Notes: generated by a model not told the origin, from the letters alone. A DNA stretch of 64,000 nt from TPA_inf: Saccharomyces (GCA_000146045.2 BK006948.2:896001-960000); one strand, 5' to 3'. Counted from the first letter of the stretch, positions 43,621 through 57,870 are shown. Numbers and translations: made by a program.

Positions 43621-46600
43621 CTAGTACTCTCTAGAAATAGTAATGTCCCTTTCCAGCTCAACCAAATTTCTATTTGTAGTGCTTGACTTCCTTGCCGGCA
43701 ATTTTTTGGAATGTACTGCTTTCGCAGTCTTTCTTATTGGCGATGATGATGCCGTTCTTGCTTGTGATGGTTTCTTTTTATAATTAGATTTGTCGTTCAG
43801 AACGTCGTCAATCACTCCATCTATAGGAATATTAAAGAATTGTTTTTCTGTCTCCAAAGTATAGTCTAACGGTTTATTTGCACATTCATAGAACGCTTCA
43901 AATGCCTTCCTGCCACCATACACTCTTTTGTACTTCCTTTCCATAGGCGTGGTATTCTTTTTTCTGGTTAATTTTTTCTTATTTTCGTCATCTATCCTGT
44001 TTTCCTTCTTTCTCCTGTTCTCCAGCAATTGCTTTTCTGGGATTGCTGAATCGTTAGCAATTTTATGAAGTGTGGGATAATCTGGCATATTGACAGGTAA
44101 TCTGATTCGTTGATCAGCTTTGGCATTTTTGGTACCATCTAAAAAATTGGATCCCATAATACGTACTTTAGTCCTTTTGCCCTTCTCGACATCCTTTATA
44201 TAGTCTAGGAGGCTGTACTCTGCAGTGTTCCCATCTCTAGCGTATTCTTTGGATGTACACTCCCGCAGATACTCATCTTCTAGCCGATTCACATCGCGCT
44301 TATCTGACTGGACTTGCATCGCAAGAAAATATTTTAAGAACTCTGGAGTATAAGATTTATTATATTCTTCAAATACAGGTTCTCTGTAGTTATAGGCATA
44401 TTGTGATACTTTGCTGTCGATATCGAGATTTGGTTTACCCAATTTACTATTGGATTTGTCTAGCAGTTGATTGATATCAAGCGCCTCCCCATGAGGAATG
44501 GCGGTTTTGTTCGAGGGGGTTATGCAGTCCATATTGACTTCTTTACGTATGACAGAATCAATATCTACTTGCGAGAAAAAGGCACAGTTTTGCGGTAATT
44601 CATTTATCCCCATTTGCTGGCAAAACATTGCTCTCGTCCATATGTTGCTGATTTGCAAAGCCATAGCAGCTCTGTATTTGTCCTTTTCGCTCACCAAAAA
44701 TCTAATCTCATCATGGATGGAAATGCAAAGCCTTGCCTCAAGGTTATATTTCTTAATAATATATTCCATGGAGCAACAAAGAAGATGTAGATAATCCACT
44801 CCAGATGACTGGATGGCCCAATTGATTCTTGAAGGTAGAAAGGAATTCGCCCTCAGATTTTTCTTCATAAGTGAATAGGTAATACCACATCCCAGTACCG
44901 GTGTCTTTGGAGTTTCTTGTTCCGCGATGCTTTCTAATTTATTGAATAGAATTGACTCAGATCCACCATACCAAAATTTTTTGAATAATTTTGATCTTTT
45001 CGTTTTACCTTTCGTATTTTCATATAACTTATTCGCAATTTTTTTTGTCTCTTCATCAGTTAGAGATGGGTTAAACCTTTTAAGTAACTGACTCGCAAAT
45101 TTAGCACCAGCGCCGTAAATTCTACCATAATTAAAAATTTTCGCCTCATTACGAGAACACCCCAAAATTTGAGCAGTCTTCGTGTGCAAATCTGTACCTT
45201 CGTTTTTAGTGCCTTCTAAACACATCCAACCAATGGCGGTACCACCATGAACATTGAAAATGGAGTCACCGACTAAAGATGCTATCCACAATTCCTCACT
45301 ATCCACGTCCGCCCCAACAAAACAATAACCTGGAGGAGCTTTGACTTGAGTTTTCAATTCGGAACCTATCCTATTTGCTTTTGCATTGGATGCGGTTAAC
45401 CACGCATTTTCCACAGCTCTTCTAGTGATTGTGCCCATGGGGACGATTTTCGGTATAATTATGGCAAGATCATTTGTCTTCTCATTATTTAACGACGATT
45501 TTGCGGACAAAGACTGGAACTCATTAGGGAATTTACAACTGGGGACTACAAATTGGGATTGGATTCTTTCCCTTGCTGACATCCAATAAGACCCTGAAGA
45601 GTTAATTTGTAAAGCCTGATGAGCCAATTCTGACTCAGATTTTAGTACGCCCTTTTCAAAAAAATGGTTATACGATTTGGTTAAAAGATTAGTGCAATTA
45701 AAAGTCGGCCCATTGGGATGAGGTACTTTGAAAAGAACACCTGTGCATTGCAATCCTAGGTTATGCGTTCTTATTTCCTCTTCCTCTTGAGATACGCTAT
45801 CTGCCAAAACATAATTTTTAGCCTTGTATGTTTCTACTTGTTCATGGGGCACGTTGAAGCACCATCCAGACTCCTTCGACCATATTACGGGGGAATTCTC
45901 CCACGATAACTTGAACAAAATCGGAATTATTCTTGATTTAATAGTGATCTTAGGTTCTACAGTGTCCTTTGAGGGAAAAAGTTGTCTATACCATTCTGGA
46001 AAGCCGGGCAGCTTTTGACACTTTGCAGGAACACCTTTCTTTGTCAATCTTAAAGGTTTGGTGGTCCAATCCAATTGTGATAACCAGGGATCCTTGAGAT
46101 AAAAATCTGGTTTGTCCTTCAACAGGACGATATCTTTTATGATTTGAACAATTTTGGATTCTATCTGGACTTTGGACTGTTGGTACAAAGACTCAGAGCT
46201 GTTCAAGTAATCATTCCAGTCGTTTAGCTTCGTCGGCAGAATGCATTTGCTTAAGGACTTTAAACCTGCAAACGAAACTGGATGAGGACACTTTTTCAGG
46301 AAAACAGGGAAAATCTCATCAAACACTTGGCTTGTGGCCGTTACGTCAGTGGCGCAGTAGTTGACCAGTTTTTGGAAATTTTCTATTATCGTTGATTTAT
46401 CTGTGGAAGCAAAGAAATCTCTATCAGTCTTATCAAGATCTATCTTGCAGTGAAATTTCGCTACATCCTTTAGCGAGTTTAAAGCAGACACATTTAACCA
46501 AGGGTCGTCATAATCTTCTATGGAAATTTCTGGATGTACTTCCGATTCCACTTCTGCCTCTTTTTTCTTGTTATTCTTCATGAACATCGGACGTTGTCTT

Positions 46601-47385
46601 GAACACAGCCCGAAAGATGCAATATGCAGAGATTGAGTGTCGAGGAAAAACGCCTTCGAGTCCCTGAAGTTGTATTCTTCGAGAACCCGTGCCCTATCAT
46701 ACGCAACATTGTGACCAATTATTACTTGCTCTTTATTCAATGTGTTTAGGGGTATCAGTGCAGCAGGATCATCACCACCACATATGAACGGCGAACACCA
46801 AAGGTACCACGCCGTCGATGACAAGGCCGTGGCCAAAGTCGGATAGTCAGAGACGTTATAGAGTGTTTCTACATCAAACACCACCAGCTCTTCGTCTGGG
46901 TATGCCACTTCGACGGGTGCCATTCCAGGTACGTATTTAACCCAGCCTGGCTTCCGCAGCCATTCCGCCGGTCGTGCCACCATCTCCGTGAACTTGTCCT
47001 CGCAAAAACTCTTGTACGGTTCAGAATTGAAACGCCCAATCTTCTGGAAATGCTCATCTAGCGACCTGCCTTGTAGTGGCGGCAGAGGAAACGATATTGG
47101 ATCCGTGATGAGCGTCTTCTTCCCCCACAACCCATGGTCCTTTAGCGACTTTTTCGATAACTCCATAAGTTTGTCGCTTTGCTCCACCTCATCTTTACCA
47201 CCGCAACTACCAAATACCTGTCTTTGCAAAGACTCACCTAAATACTGTATCCCCACAGGATTAATCCTGGGTGCTTCTGCGGTATTCTTCTTTGTGGAGA
47301 ACCATCGAGCACAAAACTGCACACGCAGCGGCCGCCGCCGCACCATTCGCAGCATGCATTCAGATCTAACCATCAATTTCGTCAT
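43621..47385 (-). CDS. MIP1: Mitochondrial DNA polymerase gamma catalytic subunit
   Basis: Family A polymerase with 3'-5' exonuclease and pol domains. Recognised as Mip1 (YOR330C). I recall the accepted 1254-aa protein starting MTKLMVRSECML..., which is the ATG at 47385. The ORF stays open in frame up to an ATG at 47463. Confidence 0.88.
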   Translation of the reverse strand: MTKLMVRSECMLRMVRRRPLRVQFCARWFSTKKNTAEAPRINPVGIQYLGESLQRQVFGSCGGKDEVEQSDKLMELSKKSLKDHGLWGKKTLITDPISFPLPPLQGRSLDEHFQKIGRFNSEPYKSFCEDKFTEMVARPAEWLRKPGWVKYVPGMAPVEVAYPDEELVVFDVETLYNVSDYPTLATALSSTAWYLWCSPFICGGDDPAALIPLNTLNKEQVIIGHNVAYDRARVLEEYNFRDSKAFFLDTQSLHIASFGLCSRQRPMFMKNNKKKEAEVESEVHPEISIEDYDDPWLNVSALNSLKDVAKFHCKIDLDKTDRDFFASTDKSTIIENFQKLVNYCATDVTATSQVFDEIFPVFLKKCPHPVSFAGLKSLSKCILPTKLNDWNDYLNSSESLYQQSKVQIESKIVQIIKDIVLLKDKPDFYLKDPWLSQLDWTTKPLRLTKKGVPAKCQKLPGFPEWYRQLFPSKDTVEPKITIKSRIIPILFKLSWENSPVIWSKESGWCFNVPHEQVETYKAKNYVLADSVSQEEEEIRTHNLGLQCTGVLFKVPHPNGPTFNCTNLLTKSYNHFFEKGVLKSESELAHQALQINSSGSYWMSARERIQSQFVVPSCKFPNEFQSLSAKSSLNNEKTNDLAIIIPKIVPMGTITRRAVENAWLTASNAKANRIGSELKTQVKAPPGYCFVGADVDSEELWIASLVGDSIFNVHGGTAIGWMCLEGTKNEGTDLHTKTAQILGCSRNEAKIFNYGRIYGAGAKFASQLLKRFNPSLTDEETKKIANKLYENTKGKTKRSKLFKKFWYGGSESILFNKLESIAEQETPKTPVLGCGITYSLMKKNLRANSFLPSRINWAIQSSGVDYLHLLCCSMEYIIKKYNLEARLCISIHDEIRFLVSEKDKYRAAMALQISNIWTRAMFCQQMGINELPQNCAFFSQVDIDSVIRKEVNMDCITPSNKTAIPHGEALDINQLLDKSNSKLGKPNLDIDSKVSQYAYNYREPVFEEYNKSYTPEFLKYFLAMQVQSDKRDVNRLEDEYLRECTSKEYARDGNTAEYSLLDYIKDVEKGKRTKVRIMGSNFLDGTKNAKADQRIRLPVNMPDYPTLHKIANDSAIPEKQLLENRRKKENRIDDENKKKLTRKKNTTPMERKYKRVYGGRKAFEAFYECANKPLDYTLETEKQFFNIPIDGVIDDVLNDKSNYKKKPSQARTASSSPIRKTAKAVHSKKLPARKSSTTNRNLVELERDITISREY

Positions 47386-47655
47386 ACTTGTCCCTCGTTG
47401 CTCAACAACTACATATAATCCCCATCTCGACCTCTTCTTTAGAACCGTTCTTTCGTAGTCCATACCTATTGTTGTTTACTGAGTATCGGCTAAAAGTGCG
47501 CCCGAGGTCACCCGCCACGGAGAGGGGCGAAAGCGGCCATTTCGATAAGAACTCACGCTATATATCAGCAAAGAACAATAGCAGTTGCAAGAAAAGTTGT
47601 TTGTAACTGTTTTACAAAAGAGGCACAGAACAGGCCACGCACCATCCGATACAGC

Positions 47656-48595: not shown

Positions 48596-50008
48596 ATGAA
48601 TCGGCGTCTCCTGGTACGTTCTATATCTTGTTTCCAACCTTTGTCGAGAATAACTTTTGGAAGACCAAACACGCCATTTCTTAGAAAGTATGCTGACACA
48701 TCCACTGCTGCAAACACCAACAGCACCATATTGCGGAAACAGTTACTATCGTTGAAGCCCATTTCTGCCTCTGATTCACTGTTCATTTCGTGTACGGTAT
48801 TCAATTCTAAGGGAAATATTATCTCAATGTCCGAGAAGTTTCCTAAATGGTCCTTTTTAACTGAACATTCCCTTTTCCCCAGAGACCTGAGGAAAATAGA
48901 TAACTCCTCTATTGATATTATTCCAACCATCATGTGTAAGCCAAACTGTATTGTCATCAACTTATTGCATATCAAAGCTCTTATCGAACGAGATAAGGTC
49001 TACGTCTTCGATACAACAAACCCTTCCGCCGCTGCCAAACTGAGTGTACTTATGTATGACTTGGAGTCTAAGTTGTCCTCCACCAAGAATAACTCTCAAT
49101 TTTACGAGCATAGAGCCCTCGAGAGTATTTTCATCAACGTAATGAGCGCACTGGAAACAGATTTCAAGCTTCACTCACAAATCTGTATTCAAATCTTAAA
49201 TGATCTGGAAAACGAGGTCAATAGACTTAAACTGCGGCATCTTTTAATTAAGTCCAAAGATCTTACGCTTTTTTACCAAAAAACTTTATTGATTAGAGAT
49301 CTATTAGATGAACTATTAGAAAACGACGATGATTTAGCAAACATGTACTTGACAGTTAAGAAGTCTCCTAAGGACAATTTTTCGGACTTGGAAATGCTTA
49401 TAGAGACGTACTACACCCAATGTGATGAATACGTTCAGCAATCAGAATCTTTGATTCAGGATATCAAATCTACTGAAGAAATTGTCAACATCATATTGGA
49501 CGCAAATAGAAATTCCTTAATGTTGTTGGAGTTGAAAGTTACCATCTACACGTTGGGATTCACAGTAGCATCTGTTCTGCCGGCATTCTATGGTATGAAT
49601 TTAAAGAATTTCATCGAGGAGAGTGAATGGGGGTTTACTTCAGTGGCGGTATTTTCTATTGTTTCTGCCCTTTATATCACCAAGAAAAATTTTAATTCTT
49701 TAAGATCCGTGACAAAGATGACCATGTATCCAAACTCACCCGCAAACTCCAGTGTGTATCCTAAAACATCAGCGTCTATTGCCCTGACAAATAAACTAAA
49801 GCGAAGGCGGAAGTGGTGGAAATCAACCAAGCAGCGGTTGGGAGTGCTACTTTATGGCAGCAGCTACACTAATAAGGCTAACCTGTCGAATAATAAGATT
49901 AATAAAGGTTTTTCAAAGGTGAAGAAATTTAACATGGAGAATGATATTAAGAACAAGCAGAACAGAGATATGATTTGGAAATGGTTGATAGAAGACAAGA
50001 AAAATTGA
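48596..50008 (+). CDS. MRS2: Mitochondrial inner-membrane Mg2+ channel (CorA family)
   Basis: 470-aa ORF with two C-terminal TMs flanking the CorA signature (AFYGMNLKNF contains G-M-N). Recognised as Mrs2 (YOR334W). Confidence 0.92.
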   Translation: MNRRLLVRSISCFQPLSRITFGRPNTPFLRKYADTSTAANTNSTILRKQLLSLKPISASDSLFISCTVFNSKGNIISMSEKFPKWSFLTEHSLFPRDLRKIDNSSIDIIPTIMCKPNCIVINLLHIKALIERDKVYVFDTTNPSAAAKLSVLMYDLESKLSSTKNNSQFYEHRALESIFINVMSALETDFKLHSQICIQILNDLENEVNRLKLRHLLIKSKDLTLFYQKTLLIRDLLDELLENDDDLANMYLTVKKSPKDNFSDLEMLIETYYTQCDEYVQQSESLIQDIKSTEEIVNIILDANRNSLMLLELKVTIYTLGFTVASVLPAFYGMNLKNFIEESEWGFTSVAVFSIVSALYITKKNFNSLRSVTKMTMYPNSPANSSVYPKTSASIALTNKLKRRRKWWKSTKQRLGVLLYGSSYTNKANLSNNKINKGFSKVKKFNMENDIKNKQNRDMIWKWLIEDKKN

Positions 50009-50232: not shown

Positions 50233-53109
50233 TTAAATGGAAAGCTTCTCCTTGAACAAACTTTCCAAATCATCAACTGCATCCTTTATAGCGGCTGGTT
50301 TATCACCCATACCTTGGAAAACATTACCTTTACCACCAGCCTTACCGCCGATGATACTGGACACCTTTTTGGCAAGCGCAGAACCATCAATACCCTTGGC
50401 TAAAGCAGCATTGGAGATGTAACAACCGTGAGCAACACGACCTTCAGGGTCATTACCTGCCAATAAATAGATTGACTTGTCTTTGACAGAATCATTGGAT
50501 TTCATGTAGTTGATCGCTTCAGTGATAGCTTTAGCATTTGGAGAAATATCAATGAATTTAACTAGGTATGGAGCATTCTCATTGGTTTCGAAAAATGTCT
50601 TCACTTCATCAAGAGTTTGTTTGTTTTCTTTTTTGGCCCTTGACTTAACTTCATCCTTCACTGCTTTTTCAATTTTGTTAAATTTCTGCTTCAGTTCATT
50701 TTTTGTGATAACAGAAATTGAAAGTTGACCAAGTTTGACACCAAGTTCCTTCAACTTCTTTTCTTTGATTGGAGAGAACGGCAGCTTGTCTGCAGCATCC
50801 AAATCAGCAGCAAACTGTTCAGCCAATCTTTGAGCTTCAAAGGCTTCAGTTCCAGTAACAGCAACAATTCTTCTGATACCCTTTGCAATACCGCTCTCTT
50901 CTAAAATGACGAAGTATTTAATATCGCCTGTCTTGTTGACATGGGTACCACCGCAAAATTCAATAGAATACTTGGTCCACTCTTCGTTAGCTGGGTTGGC
51001 CAACAATTCTTCGATTGGCTTACCAACAGAAACTACACGAACTGGATCTGGGTAAGTCTCACCAAAGACAGCACGAACACCATCAATGGATTTGGCCAAG
51101 TCCAATGGAATTTCCTTGTAAAACACTTGTAAGTTTTCTTTAATTTGCTCATTACAGATATCTTCAACTTTTTTCAATTCTTCATTTGACACAGCCTTTT
51201 TATGAGAGAAATCGAATCTCAATTTTTCTGGGGCAACCAAAGAACCCTTTTGATCGACATCATTACCCAAAGTTTCCTTCAGAGCAAAGTTTAAGATATG
51301 TGTACCAGTATGATTGTTCTTAATAGGGAAACGACGTAGTTCATCGAATGAAGCGATAATCTTGTCACCGACAGACAACTTACCTTCTTCTAAAGACCCG
51401 GTGTGGAAAACAAAACCGTTATACAATTGAACATTTTCAACATTAAACTCAGCAGCGTCATCAATAACAATTTTACCAGTGTCATATTCTTGACCACCTT
51501 GTTCGGCGTAGAAACATGTTTTATCCAAAATAATACCGTACTTCTTACCTGGTTCAGTGATCTCATCAACAAAGTTGGTACCGTCATGCAGTTTCAAAAT
51601 GGTACCTTCGACGTTGGCGCTGCCGTATTTGAATTCATCATTAGTCTTGGGCACCTTAGCATCGTTCAACTCGGATAATTCATGGACGTTTAACTTAATC
51701 AAATCACTTTGGTCCTTCTTACCACCTCTTTTGGATGCTTCGTATGACTCTTGTTTGGCCTTTTCGAAACCGGGTCCATCAATCTTCAAGCCTTGTTCTT
51801 CAGCCATCAATTCAGTCAAGTCGACTGGGAAACCATAAGTGTCGTAAAGTCTCCAAACTTGTTTACCGTCTAAAGTCTTAGATTCAGTCTTAGAAGCAGC
51901 AGAAGCATATTTTTCAAATAGTCTTTCACCACGATCCAAGGTCTTAGCGAAAGAAGCTTCTTCTTCATCCAAGATTTCAAAGAGGAATGCAGGATCCTTG
52001 GCTAATTCGGGAAAGATATCTTGAACCTGAGAAATTAAAGTTGGAGCCAAAGTGGAGAAAAAGTTACCGATTGGGTAATTCATGTATTTACGGGCGTAAC
52101 GGGCACCTCTTCTTAGAATGCGTCTCAAAACATATCCTCTACCTTCATTGTTTGGAACGCCACCGTCAGCTAAGGCAAAAGTCAATGTACGGACATGATC
52201 AGCTAAAACTCTGTAGGCAGTATCGATACCGTCCTTGTCATTCTCACCAAAATTGCCAGAATATGGTCTAACTGAAGTGATTTCTTGGATACGCTCGAAC
52301 AAAGGTGTGAAAACATCGGTATCATAGTTAGATCTAACATCTTGCAGAACAGAAACCAATCTTTCGAACCCCATACCTGTGTCGATATGCTTGGCAGGTA
52401 AAGGCTTCAAAGACCCGTCTTGTTCTCTGTTGAATTGAATGAAAACCAAATTCCAAACTTCCAAGACATCAGGGTCGTCCATATTAACCAAGGAAGCAGC
52501 ATTTCTACCACCTATTCTATCGTAGTGAATTTCAGAACAAGGACCACATGGGCCTTGGTCACCCATTTCCCAAAAGTTGTCCTTTGCATTACCAGGTAAT
52601 ATATGGTCATCGGGAACACCAACATTTTTCCATAGTTCACGGGCTTCAGTATCAGGTTCCAAGCCTAACTTTTCATCACCTTCAAAATAGGTAACGTATA
52701 ATCTATCCTTTGGAATGCCGTATACTTCAGTCAACAAAGTCCATGAGTAAGTAATAGCTTCCTTCTTGAAATAGTCGCCAAACGACCAGTTACCCAGCAT
52801 TTCAAAAAAGGTATGATGATAAGAATCCTTACCGACATCTTCTAAATCGTTGTGTTTACCACCAGCTCTGATACACTTTTGAGAGTTGTAAGCCCTTTTC
52901 AAGGTGTAGAAATCGGAAGCTGGATCGACAGTACCTAAAAAGATAGGCTTGTATTGGTTCATACCGGCATTAGCGAAAAGTAAAGTTGGATCATCAAATG
53001 GAACTACTGGAGAGGATTTGACAAACTTGTGTTCTTTAGATTTGAAATAGTCTAGAAAGGTATTACGGACATTAGTAGCGGTCCATTTTTGCTTATCACC
53101 GATCGTCAT
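50233..53109 (-). CDS. ALA1: Alanyl-tRNA synthetase, cytoplasmic isoform from ATG at 53109 (958 aa)
   Basis: Class II AlaRS recognised as Ala1 (YOR335C). The protein starts [14 protein letters not shown]... The track ORF is 16 codons longer because it starts at an upstream TTG (53157). Confidence 0.92.
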
Positions 53110-53184
53110 TATGGTTCTAGTTGATGTAGTTAATTGCTTCTTGAAAGAAAGAGTCAAGTTCCTTAATCCGGTAGTTGACGTCGT
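53110..53184 (-). CDS. ALA1: In-frame 5' extension of ALA1 beginning at tandem ACG ACG codons (53184-53179), the presumptive mitochondrial-isoform presequence
   Basis: ACGACG is read directly at codons -25/-24 relative to the ATG. The frame is open throughout and encodes [25 protein letters not shown], a basic, hydroxylated stretch that looks like a mitochondrial targeting sequence. This is consistent with published non-AUG initiation of mitochondrial AlaRS in yeast. Confidence 0.6.
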
Positions 53185-53772
53185 CTTGTCTTAAATAAGA
53201 AGATGTTGGAAGCACGCCTTTTTTGTAATTCTATTTAAAAAAAACCGACTTTGTTCAATCAAACTGCTTTCATATCTGATAGCAGTCGCCAACTGCGTTT
53301 TTCTTGTTTTACTCATCATCCATCGAGCGGATGAAAAAAAAGAGAAAAAAGAAACGGCCAATCCGTTGATCATGATTAAATAAAATATAGGGTTCTGAAT
53401 TGTTAGGTTTAATCTGCAAATTATTCAGGTCATCGTTGACTTTTTTGCAGGGCACTAAAAACCGCTAACATAGGACGGTATATTGCTGATTTTAGACTTA
53501 ACTTCTTGGTGTAGTCGTCTCTGAACATGGCATGATACAGCTTTGGTGGGTCACTAGAACAATTTGAATCTTGCTCAGCACGCTCTGTCTTACGTATATA
53601 TCCAATTTCAGTTGATTCGAAAGACATGAAAGATTATTAATGTGTGCATTACCCGGATTGTCAATAACTCATATAGTTAGTATACTAATTAACTAACTAT
53701 ATAACGTGGCATATTAAAGATTAATTGTCCTGGTAGAATATAGACGTATCAGTGTGAGTGCCTCTGTTGATT

Positions 53773-56700
53773 ATGAGACTACTTGCGTTGGTATTGTTAT
53801 TGTTGTGTGCGCCGCTTCGTGCATGGACTTATAGCTTACGATATGGCATACCCGAATCTGCTCAGGTCTGGTCTATTTTAGTTCATTTACTGGGCGATGT
53901 TGATAATCAGCTGTTAACTAATTTATATCCTTTGGTTACCGGTTTGGATGACGAGATTGATATTCAAGAAAATCTTGTGGCGCTAACTTCCAATGTATTA
54001 AGGGAGCGATACGATAAAGAGGATGTGGCTGATTTATTGGAACTGTATGCTAGTCTTTACCCTATGGGTATGATACAGCACGATATCAGTTCCAATGCAG
54101 AACAAGACGATGCAAATAGTAGCTATTTCGTTTTGAATGGTAATAGGTACGAAAAGCCCGACGACGTGTTCTACTTGAAATCTAAGGATTTAACAATTCA
54201 ACAGAAAGTCCCAGATGTTGATGTTATACAACCTTACGATGTTGTCATTGGTACTAACTCAGAAGCGCCGATATTGATCTTGTACGGTTGTCCTACCGTT
54301 ATTGACTCCGACTTCGAAGAATTCAATAGGAATTTATTTATGGAAGCAATGAATGGAGAGGGAAAATTTAGATTTATTTGGAGATCCACATGTTCCCTTG
54401 ATGGGAAAAGCGTGGAGTATCCCTTAACTCATCCGCTTGAAATTACTTTACAAAATGGTTCTAGAATGAGCTCCATACCTCAATTAAAAAAAATACTATA
54501 TACTGTACCCAAAGAAATATTGGTTGGAGCAGACAACGATGATCAGCTCCATGATCTAGAACCAGAAGAATTACGTGAACTTGATTTGAGAGTAACATCG
54601 TTAATCTCAGAATTTTACCAATATAAAAAGGATATCACAGCCACTCTAAATTTCACCAAAAGTATTGTTAACAACTTTCCACTAATCTCTAAACAACTGA
54701 TTAAGGTTTCATCTGTTAACAAGGATATAATAACAAGTAATGAAGAACTCAATAGTAAAGGCTTCGATTACAACATGCTAGGTCTCTATATTAATGGACA
54801 GAATTGGAAAATTACCTCACTGACTCCGTACAATTTGCTTACTGCTTTAAAAACTGAATACCAAAGTTTACTGAAAATTACGAACCTTTTGCAAGAACTC
54901 GAGCCATCGAAATGCATACTAGATTCCAAGTTTTTACTCAATAAGTTTTCTCAATTTTCATTGGGGAAGTTGCAAAACTTACAACCAATCAAAATGGATC
55001 TCCACACAATTCCAGGGTTCTCAGAATCAGTAATATACTTCAATGATATCGAAAGCGACCCGCAATATGACGAATTAGTAAATAGTGTTCAAGCATTTTT
55101 TGATAAATCGAAATTCGGAGAGTTGCCTGAAATAAAGCAAAACTGGTCAGAGATCATATTCGTTATAGATTTCGCCCGTTTAGAAGATAGTGAGGTGAAG
55201 GAGGCATTGGGTGGGTTGGTTCGTGCCGTTAATGTTGTCTCCCAGGGATATCCGCAAAGAGTCGGACTATTGCCATTTAGTTCAGATAGTGACAAGTCCG
55301 TTGTTAATAAAATTTACGAGCTGAAGAACTCAACTGACAATTTAACAGAATTAAAAAGTTTTTTGGAGACAATGCTGCTTGCAGATGGCCTTTCCGCGAA
55401 TGCAAAACATTCAAAACACATACCAGTTCCAGATGTTTTCCATCTACTTGATGAACTTCAAATTGACGAAACATCAATTATAATCAATGGAGAGATTTAC
55501 CCATTTAGAAAAAATGCTTGGAATTATTTAATTGCAAAAGTTATCAAAAAGGACACTGAATTTATTCGTAAAGAATTGAGCAATTCTTCTCCGAAAAACA
55601 AACAAATTAGCGTAAGGGACTTATTGCATTACAAATCTGCAAATCTGAGACATAATAAATATACACCAAATTATTTTGCTGATTCGGTATATTCTTCGGT
55701 CAACAATACTGCATTGGAAAGCGTATGCTCAGAAAGAATAGGCTACTATACTAAAAATGAAGAATACAATTTATTACACACAATCACATTAGTGGATGAT
55801 TTTGGCTCTATTCATGCTTTGAAAAGATTGAGAAACTTGTTGCATACTTCCTTTGTTGGTGTTAGGATCAGAATCATTCACGTAGGTGATATTTCTGATA
55901 TTTGGTATCAATTGCGTGGAAGTCTTTCCCAAAAAGATCCAATAGGCTCAATAAATACATTTATTGATGCTTTGAAACTTAAAAAGGTAAAAAGTCACAC
56001 GTACAAAAAAAGCGGCTTAAACCAGTTAGGCCTTCATAAATGGCTTCCTGACATTCCATTATTTGAATTGCAAAAGGGTTCATTTATTGCTTTGAACGGT
56101 AGATTTATTCATCTTGATCAAAATGAAGTGCCAGAAACAGAACATTTCGAAGCAATCATAAAGAGAGAAGCTCTAAGAACGATCGATTCAGTTTTCGCCC
56201 TAGATTTACTTTTTCCAGGTTTCTCACAGGAAATAATCAATCCTGATTTGATAGAAATGATCTCCTCCATTTTAACTAGGTTGTTTTACCAAGGTACACA
56301 TATATACAATAATGGTATTGATTATACCACTGAAAGTAGCTTACCAAGAATGGATTTGAGCGAGTTTTTTAGACCTAATAATTTAACGATGTTTGAAGAT
56401 GGAAAATCAGCTTCTATTGATTTACTACTAATTTTAGATCCACTTGAAGAGAGAACGCAAATGATTCTTTCTCTTGTTGAGCAATTCAGGCCTTTGAAAT
56501 TTGTTAATATTCAGGTAATTTTAATGCCGACACTGGAATTAAACATTGTCCCTATTAGAAGAATATACGTTGATGACGCAGATATTGTCAAATCAATAAC
56601 TTCTGAGGATAGCAGATCAGATCCAGAAGTAGATATTGAAATGGATGTTCCTAATTCTTTCATTGTAGATAATAATTATCGGATAAAAAAATTGCTCATA

Positions 56701-57870
56701 GAATTACATTCCTTCTCTAGCAAAACAGTCCTTTCAACTGGCAATATTGATGGTATGGGGGGTGTATGCCTAGCACTTGTCGATTCTGCAGGGAACATTA
56801 TTGACAAAACTACAACAATGAAAACCTTTGGCTATGGACAATTTCATACCGACAAATTTTTAAAGGGTTGCTATATAAAAAGTTGTGATTCAAGATATAC
56901 CGTTCAGTCATTTTCTACTGACGGGCATCCCGACTTTATACCATCAGATTCCTTGGATATACTGTCGTACAATCCACAAAAAATCGCTGTAAAAATTTCA
57001 GAAGAGCCTACACACGAGGAAGAATACGAGGAAGGTCGCAACAATGATACAATAATCAATATTTTTACTATTTTAGAGTCCGGGCCAGATGAGGAAGAGA
57101 GGTACATGCAAATGATTTTATCCATTTTGTCAAAGTGTCCCGAAACGCAAAAGGTGAATTTTTTCATTTTAGATCAGCCGTTTATCTCCGACACTTTAAG
57201 GAAATCATGTGAGTATATAAATTCCTCTGATGAAATGAGAGGCAATGTCATTTTTTTGAATTATGAATGGCCTCAATGGTTAAGACCGCAAAGATTTTCT
57301 TCAAGGAGAAGGGATGTCTCTAGATTTCTGTTCTTGGATGTCCTTTTACCTCAAAACATCTCCAAAGTGTTATATATGAGTCCAACTGAAGTACCGCTGG
57401 ATCCTTTTGACATTTTTCAATTTCAAGGCCTCAAACGTGCACCTCTAGGACTATTCCGAATGAGTGGTGATGGTTATTGGAAAGAAGGATACTGGGAAAA
57501 AATGTTAAGGGAGAATAATTTAGAATTTTATTCTACCGAACCGGCCTTTTTAGTAAACTTAGAGAGGTTTCGGGAGTTAGATGCTGGTGATAAATACAGG
57601 ATTCACTATCAACGTATTTCTACAGACGCCATGTCTCTTGTCAATATCGGCCAAGATCTAGTTAACAACCTACAACTCGAGGTTCCGATTAGGTTTCTCA
57701 AGGGATCGTATAAGAAGAAATTAGTTATTAATGATGAATGTGTTTCTGAATGGAAGAAAAAAATAAATAAGTTCGCATCCTCTCCTGGCGATGAAGACGT
57801 ACCTGGAGAAAGTGTTAGCAGCAAATACCAAGATTCCGACAATGCCGCTCCTCTGCATGACGAATTATAA
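53773..57870 (+). CDS. KRE5: ER UDP-glucose:glycoprotein glucosyltransferase-like protein required for beta-1,6-glucan synthesis
   Basis: The ORF has an N-terminal signal peptide, a C-terminal glycosyltransferase-8-like domain and a terminal HDEL ER-retention signal. Recognised as Kre5 (YOR336W). The track ORF begins 5 codons earlier (MPLLIM...). I chose the ATG at 53773 (MRLLALVLLLL...) to match the 1365-aa protein I recall. Confidence 0.85.
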   Translation: MRLLALVLLLLCAPLRAWTYSLRYGIPESAQVWSILVHLLGDVDNQLLTNLYPLVTGLDDEIDIQENLVALTSNVLRERYDKEDVADLLELYASLYPMGMIQHDISSNAEQDDANSSYFVLNGNRYEKPDDVFYLKSKDLTIQQKVPDVDVIQPYDVVIGTNSEAPILILYGCPTVIDSDFEEFNRNLFMEAMNGEGKFRFIWRSTCSLDGKSVEYPLTHPLEITLQNGSRMSSIPQLKKILYTVPKEILVGADNDDQLHDLEPEELRELDLRVTSLISEFYQYKKDITATLNFTKSIVNNFPLISKQLIKVSSVNKDIITSNEELNSKGFDYNMLGLYINGQNWKITSLTPYNLLTALKTEYQSLLKITNLLQELEPSKCILDSKFLLNKFSQFSLGKLQNLQPIKMDLHTIPGFSESVIYFNDIESDPQYDELVNSVQAFFDKSKFGELPEIKQNWSEIIFVIDFARLEDSEVKEALGGLVRAVNVVSQGYPQRVGLLPFSSDSDKSVVNKIYELKNSTDNLTELKSFLETMLLADGLSANAKHSKHIPVPDVFHLLDELQIDETSIIINGEIYPFRKNAWNYLIAKVIKKDTEFIRKELSNSSPKNKQISVRDLLHYKSANLRHNKYTPNYFADSVYSSVNNTALESVCSERIGYYTKNEEYNLLHTITLVDDFGSIHALKRLRNLLHTSFVGVRIRIIHVGDISDIWYQLRGSLSQKDPIGSINTFIDALKLKKVKSHTYKKSGLNQLGLHKWLPDIPLFELQKGSFIALNGRFIHLDQNEVPETEHFEAIIKREALRTIDSVFALDLLFPGFSQEIINPDLIEMISSILTRLFYQGTHIYNNGIDYTTESSLPRMDLSEFFRPNNLTMFEDGKSASIDLLLILDPLEERTQMILSLVEQFRPLKFVNIQVILMPTLELNIVPIRRIYVDDADIVKSITSEDSRSDPEVDIEMDVPNSFIVDNNYRIKKLLIELHSFSSKTVLSTGNIDGMGGVCLALVDSAGNIIDKTTTMKTFGYGQFHTDKFLKGCYIKSCDSRYTVQSFSTDGHPDFIPSDSLDILSYNPQKIAVKISEEPTHEEEYEEGRNNDTIINIFTILESGPDEEERYMQMILSILSKCPETQKVNFFILDQPFISDTLRKSCEYINSSDEMRGNVIFLNYEWPQWLRPQRFSSRRRDVSRFLFLDVLLPQNISKVLYMSPTEVPLDPFDIFQFQGLKRAPLGLFRMSGDGYWKEGYWEKMLRENNLEFYSTEPAFLVNLERFRELDAGDKYRIHYQRISTDAMSLVNIGQDLVNNLQLEVPIRFLKGSYKKKLVINDECVSEWKKKINKFASSPGDEDVPGESVSSKYQDSDNAAPLHDEL

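Follow-up and report, generated by a model that had tools for sequence, protein, structure and literature searches.

Recovery of the tandem ACG start codons of mitochondrial alanyl-tRNA synthetase from the leader of Saccharomyces cerevisiae ALA1

[quoted passage not shown] The non-AUG start is already known, having been published in 2004, and no new biology is reported here. The analysis, which covered a 64-kb window (the whole 64,000-nucleotide stretch of DNA), has its value as a positive control, in which an experimentally proven non-AUG start was recovered from raw sequence with the exact codons. ALA1 is a textbook case of one eukaryotic gene serving two compartments by way of a weak non-AUG start, and work on start-codon stringency in yeast relies on it as a standard reporter.

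The open reading frame carries the Pfam domains tRNA-synt_2c (E 2e-229), tRNA_SAD and DHHA1. By exact-sequence look-up, the 958-aa protein read from ATG1 is identical to NP_014980.3, alanine--tRNA ligase, which is Ala1 of S. cerevisiae S288C. The gene is flanked by an MRS2-like Mg transporter (48596-50008, plus strand) and a KRE5-like Glyco_transf_24 protein (53773-57870, plus strand), both of which are also present at orthologous loci. Genes for the V-ATPase E subunit and for mitochondrial DNA polymerase lie further along the window. Protein identity and fitting neighbors together establish that the window is the S. cerevisiae ALA1 (YOR335C) region. Neither tRNA genes (ARAGORN) nor Rfam families at the gathering threshold were detected in the 64-kb window. 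The coding sequence is located as follows.

50233..53109, minus strand: ALA1 coding sequence from ATG1, class II alanyl-tRNA synthetase, 958 aa plus stop (Pfam; exact protein match)

Read on the minus strand and checked by script, positions 53184-53179 are ACGACG and positions 53109-53107 are ATG. With 75 nt from ACGACG to ATG, the two ACGs fall in frame as codons -25 and -24, and every coordinate given for them in the original prediction proved exact. It was also predicted that the frame upstream of the ATG stays open. This holds through the ACG pair, and the frame then ends at an in-frame TAA (53193-53191, codon -28). Because this stop lies two codons above the first ACG, the open leader comprises only 27 codons (DK plus the 25 of the extension). 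The features of the leader, all on the minus strand, are listed below.

53107..53109, minus strand: ATG1, start of the cytoplasmic AlaRS isoform (begins the 958-aa protein)
53110..53184, minus strand: 25-codon N-terminal extension, (M) plus 24 residues, mitochondrial targeting presequence (composition; four-species alignment; PMC2909995 Fig. 1; footprints)
53155..53157, minus strand: TTG(-16), start chosen by an ORF caller using the bacterial code, insufficient for the mitochondrial form (ORF list; YPG negative control)
53179..53181, minus strand: ACG(-24), redundant second non-AUG start (sequence; four-species invariance; PMC2909995, PMC3245939)
53182..53184, minus strand: ACG(-25), main non-AUG start of the mitochondrial AlaRS isoform (sequence; four-species invariance; PMC2909995)
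53185..53187, minus strand: AAG at -3 to -1 of ACG(-25), fitting the favorable AAR context (invariant in four Saccharomyces)
53191..53193, minus strand: in-frame TAA, codon -28, upstream limit of the open leader in S. cerevisiae (sequence)

The near-cognate ACG codons thus lie in frame upstream of AUG1 with no stop codon intervening. ACG(-25) stands in the context GACAAGACGA, with A at -3 and AAG at -3 to -1; the most favorable context for non-AUG initiation in yeast is AAR at these positions (AARuug) (PMC2909995). Other in-frame near-cognates of the leader are TTG(-16), in the context AAC, and ATA(-1) at 53112, in the context ACC. AAG and AGG codons also occur in it, and both have been reported inactive as start codons (PMC2909995). 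Between the ACG pair and ATG1, ATG is absent from all three frames in S. cerevisiae, S. mikatae, S. eubayanus and S. uvarum. The nearest ATG upstream of ATG1 in S. cerevisiae is at -164 nt, out of frame. An upstream in-frame AUG start, of the AUG/AUG type used by HTS1 and VAS1, was considered and rejected, the 27-codon leader containing no ATG and being closed by the TAA at -28. We likewise rejected the idea of a hairpin 3' of the ACGs assisting initiation: the predicted RNA fold of 53200-53095 (minus strand) has an energy of -12.7 kcal/mol, no better than that of shuffled sequences (z = 0.09).

As predicted, the extension is basic, rich in serine and threonine and lacking in acidic residues, with 4 K/R, 0 D/E and 11 S/T in 25 residues, a composition typical of presequences (basic, hydroxylated, without acidic residues). 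Its maximum hydrophobic moment, a crude measure of amphipathicity, is 0.58 versus 0.47 +/- 0.11 for shuffles; since 18% of shuffles reach this value, the two are indistinguishable and amphipathicity is unusable as evidence. The 25-residue translation offered in the original prediction matches the sequence exactly, except that its first residue would be M rather than T. A start ACG is decoded by initiator Met-tRNA, so the isoform begins M-T-S-T-T... or M-S-T-T... and not T-T-S. Figure 1 of PMC2909995 marks the initiating residue of the extension as M* and shades the extension as a mitochondrial targeting signal.

Published experiments demonstrate that the ACGs are used as start codons, that they are needed for mitochondrial function and that the extension is translated. 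ALA1 is the sole AlaRS gene of S. cerevisiae (PMC2909995, Chang et al. 2010), which bears out the assertion that yeast has no separate mitochondrial AlaRS gene. PMC2909995, citing Tang et al. 2004 (J Biol Chem 279:49656), describes ACG(-25) and ACG(-24) as start codons that act redundantly for the mitochondrial isoform, “the first being more robust”. Initiation from consecutive ACGs exceeds that from a single ACG (PMC2909995, PMC3245939). Mutation of ACG-ACG, one of the checks proposed with the original prediction, is already in the literature: GGT(-25)/ACC(-24) served as the negative control for mitochondrial function in a glycerol (YPG) growth assay, and also in reporter expression and on Western blots (PMC2909995). 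Ribosome profiling, another of them, has been published too, and it places the relative ribosome occupancy of the translated extension at ∼0.1 of the main ORF at 30 C (PMC6898956). The ratio of extension to main-ORF footprints rises 1.7-fold in eIF1-L96P, a mutant that relaxes start-codon stringency (PMC7075259), and a genome-wide screen of non-AUG extensions for mitochondrial targeting signals recovered the extended Ala1 isoform (PMC6582344). Mutagenesis, complementation and ribosome profiling in the literature therefore uphold the predicted production of both isoforms from one gene, the mitochondrial one without an AUG, an idea that the original prediction already called established.

The same experiments bear on whether the mitochondrial isoform might instead start at TTG(-16) (53157) or ATA(-1) (53112), the ACG pair being incidental. 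Each of these codons is in frame and has A at -3, each can support initiation when substituted at ALA1 position -25 (PMC2909995), and TTG(-16) is conserved in all four Saccharomyces. The GGT(-25)/ACC(-24) construct, however, retains both of them and is nevertheless negative in the YPG assay and on the Western blot (PMC2909995). A start at -16 would leave a presequence of 16 residues and one at -1 essentially none, and the ACG pair with its context is invariant across the four species. We consider initiation at TTG(-16) or ATA(-1) very improbable. The 'M' displayed at 53157 had been suspected of not being the real start, and the negative control, in which TTG(-16) is intact, agrees. This M is an artifact explained by the ORF list, which was made under the table-11 bacterial code and begins the frame at TTG 53157.

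Initiation at the ACG pair is also the reading favored by conservation. Orthologous loci were compared from S. eubayanus, S. uvarum and S. mikatae and from eight other Saccharomycetaceae. The sequence ACAAGACGACGTC is invariant in 4/4 Saccharomyces (the three above and S. cerevisiae), and so are the ACG doublet and its AAG context. Across these four, the 75 nt of the extension align without indels and vary at 10 sites, compared with 30 variable and 8 gapped columns in the 75 just upstream; the first 60 nt of the coding sequence from ATG1 have 9 variable sites. All changes in the extension peptide are conservative (T/A, L/F, L/I, S/F and Q/R), and in none of the four has the extension gained an acidic residue or an internal ATG. 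Its variable sites fall 3/2/5 by codon position (just 10 sites), and identity by codon position between S. cerevisiae and S. eubayanus is 0.88/1.00/0.80. This pattern fits coding sequence; the sites are too few for it to stand alone. The stop at codon -28 (TAA in S. cerevisiae) has the form TGA in S. mikatae and is replaced by AAA, which leaves the frame open, in both S. eubayanus and S. uvarum, so the upstream boundary itself, unlike the ACG pair, is not conserved. The comparison shows selection on the features that ACG initiation needs, namely good context, open frame, lack of intervening AUGs and presequence composition.

Conservation of this kind might in principle reflect an untranslated 5' UTR that holds a conserved RNA or DNA regulatory element, in which the open frame and ACGACG arose by chance. 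Open leaders of this length are not rare: of the 22 window ORFs with 200 aa or more, 5 have an upstream frame open for at least 20 codons. The codon-position signal is weak, with its 10 variable sites. Against an untranslated leader stand the published mutagenesis and ribosome footprints, which show translation (PMC2909995, PMC7075259, PMC6898956), and the lack of a significant RNA fold. In addition, the frame and length of the extension are kept in four species while indels accumulate just upstream, and distant yeasts keep an open, mostly basic leader without nucleotide similarity. An untranslated leader is, in our judgment, exceedingly improbable. ACGACG occurs 16 times on both strands of the 64-kb window, or ∼1.25e-4 per position, which over the 26 in-frame positions of the leader gives a post hoc expectation of ∼0.003. 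A non-AUG codon with A at -3, at least 20 codons upstream and followed by an open, acid-free extension, is found in 1 of the 22 ORFs of at least 200 aa, that of ALA1.

Upstream of the V-ATPase E subunit ORF (ATG 47656, plus strand), the frame is open for 54 codons (47494-47655), and the peptide it would specify is very basic (13 K/R, 1 D/E), with ATA(-26) in the context ACA. This segment is a short divergent intergenic region common to the mitochondrial DNA polymerase gene, and the open frame may be due to chance. The polymerase ORF itself (43621-47463, minus strand; DNApol_Exo and DNA_pol_A) is 1280 aa long if translation is taken from the first in-frame ATG that follows the upstream stop; MIP1 of S288C is annotated at 1254 aa, which is 26 codons fewer.

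Further upstream of ALA1, the ATG at -164 nt begins a short out-of-frame uORF, ATG AAA GCA GTT TGA (53273-53259, minus strand), located 164 nt 5' of ATG1 and 89 nt 5' of ACG(-25). Its ATG is missing in S. mikatae, S. eubayanus and S. uvarum, and the position of the transcription start decides whether the ALA1 mRNA includes the uORF. A promoter block, TCGCTCGATGGAT...GATGAGTAAAACAAGAAAA (53330-53290, minus strand, approximately -220 to -180 nt from ATG1), is near-invariant in the four Saccharomyces, and its flanks diverge. It includes GATGAG, which we take to resemble the PAC motif of ribosome-biogenesis genes. The RT-PCR primer described in PMC2909995 as “nucleotides -90 to -70 of ALA1”, TATGAAAGCAGTTTGATTGAA, matches 53274-53254 of the window. 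This position is -165 to -145 from ATG1 and -90 to -70 from ACG(-25), so nucleotide numbering in PMC2909995 is not consistently relative to ATG1.

In other yeasts, the single AlaRS gene has been described as having a candidate non-ATG initiator and an acid-free presequence (PMC3245939). In the eight more distant Saccharomycetaceae compared here, the leader is open for 19 to 121 codons and mostly basic and rich in serine and threonine, even though the more distant genera lack nucleotide similarity. Most of the eight offer a near-cognate candidate start, and in several it has A at -3, as listed below.

N. dairenensis: candidate start ACG(-24), context AAA
Z. rouxii: candidate start ACG(-23), context AAA
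P0008 species: candidate start ACG(-29), context AAG
L. thermotolerans: candidate start GTG(-15), context AAA

A candidate start is harder to pick out in K. africana, K. naganishii, E. gossypii and T. blattae. Kazachstania africana ALA1 has an open leader of 19 codons, encoding ILLFTTFRRTSLQIISRRT, and this leader contains an in-frame ACG-ACG at -15/-14 (956-961 of locus L008) with an unfavorable T at -3. This doublet may be homologous to that of S. cerevisiae but shifted in position, or it may be coincidental. If initiation does occur there, ALA1 would have adopted tandem non-AUG starts repeatedly or at an earlier time. Given the invariance of the doublet in the four Saccharomyces and its occurrence in K. 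africana, selection on the ACG-ACG adjacency itself, and not merely on one weak start, is a tentative possibility that we hold to be rather doubtful. If true, it would extend the published “redundancy of non-AUG initiators” and would not constitute a new type of mechanism.

The two isoforms are most likely produced as follows, and no observation contradicts this scheme. Scanning 43S pre-initiation complexes would reach ACG(-25), in its AAG context, first and ACG(-24) next. A minority initiate at the ACGs with initiator Met-tRNA, adding a basic, hydroxyl-rich and acid-free presequence of 25 or 24 residues that directs mitochondrial import and is then processed. The share taking this route is about one tenth by relative ribosome occupancy. 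The remaining complexes would scan past the ACGs and, encountering no AUG on the way in any frame, initiate at AUG1 (53109) to give the cytoplasmic enzyme. ACG(-24) serves as a back-up to the weak upstream start, increasing its overall yield.

The isoforms of HTS1 and VAS1 are made from two transcript classes. ALA1 might be expressed in the same manner, with long mRNAs that include the ACGs and short ones that start downstream, in which case leaky scanning would not be the main route; in HTS1 and VAS1, both isoforms come from two in-frame AUGs (PMC2909995). ALA1, however, has no upstream in-frame AUG, its frame being closed by TAA at -28, and the absence of AUGs in any frame from the ACGs to AUG1 in four species is what leaky scanning requires. 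The ratio of extension to main ORF responds to eIF1-L96P (PMC7075259), so the partition is translational, which argues against two transcript classes. Furthermore, initiation from ACG is ∼50% of that from ATG even in the ALA1 reporter context (PMC2909995), so many ribosomes must pass an ACG. No statement relevant to the structure of the ALA1 mRNA (one mRNA versus two transcript classes) was found in PMC2909995. Two transcript classes as the main route are distinctly unlikely, and transcript heterogeneity possibly makes a minor contribution. We infer that ribosomes are split between the starts by leaky scanning on one mRNA, because the response to the eIF1 mutant and the conserved absence of AUGs fit.

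Among known systems, the closest is the published one: the gene in the window is the same S. cerevisiae ALA1 (YOR335C), and as far as Tang et al. 2004 is represented in PMC2909995, its ACGs are at the published -25/-24 with no difference. S. cerevisiae GRS1, for which PMC2909995 cites Chang and Wang 2004, initiates its mitochondrial glycyl-tRNA synthetase at UUG(-23). Like ALA1, it is one gene with two isoforms, and its targeting extension begins at a near-cognate codon that lies in frame upstream, within an A-rich context. Ribosome profiling detects both extensions, each of which increases in eIF1-L96P (PMC6898956, PMC7075259). GRS1 uses a single UUG, whereas ALA1 has a tandem ACG pair; the relative occupancy of the extension is 0.23 for GRS1 versus 0.1 for ALA1 (PMC6898956), and the response to eIF1-L96P is 6-fold versus 1.7-fold (PMC7075259). 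In Vanderwaltozyma polyspora, the AlaRS paralogue ALA2 makes a mitochondrial form from ACG(-23), the major start, and TTG(-28), the minor one. VpALA2 resembles ALA1 in having two non-AUG start sites and an acid-free presequence but differs in being a duplicated, subfunctionalized gene with non-AUG starts only, and in that its start codons are not adjacent (PMC3245939). HTS1 and VAS1 share with ALA1 the production of cytoplasmic and mitochondrial synthetases from one nuclear gene by alternative translation starts (PMC2909995). Their starts are both AUG, whereas ALA1 lacks an upstream in-frame AUG because TAA(-28) closes the frame.
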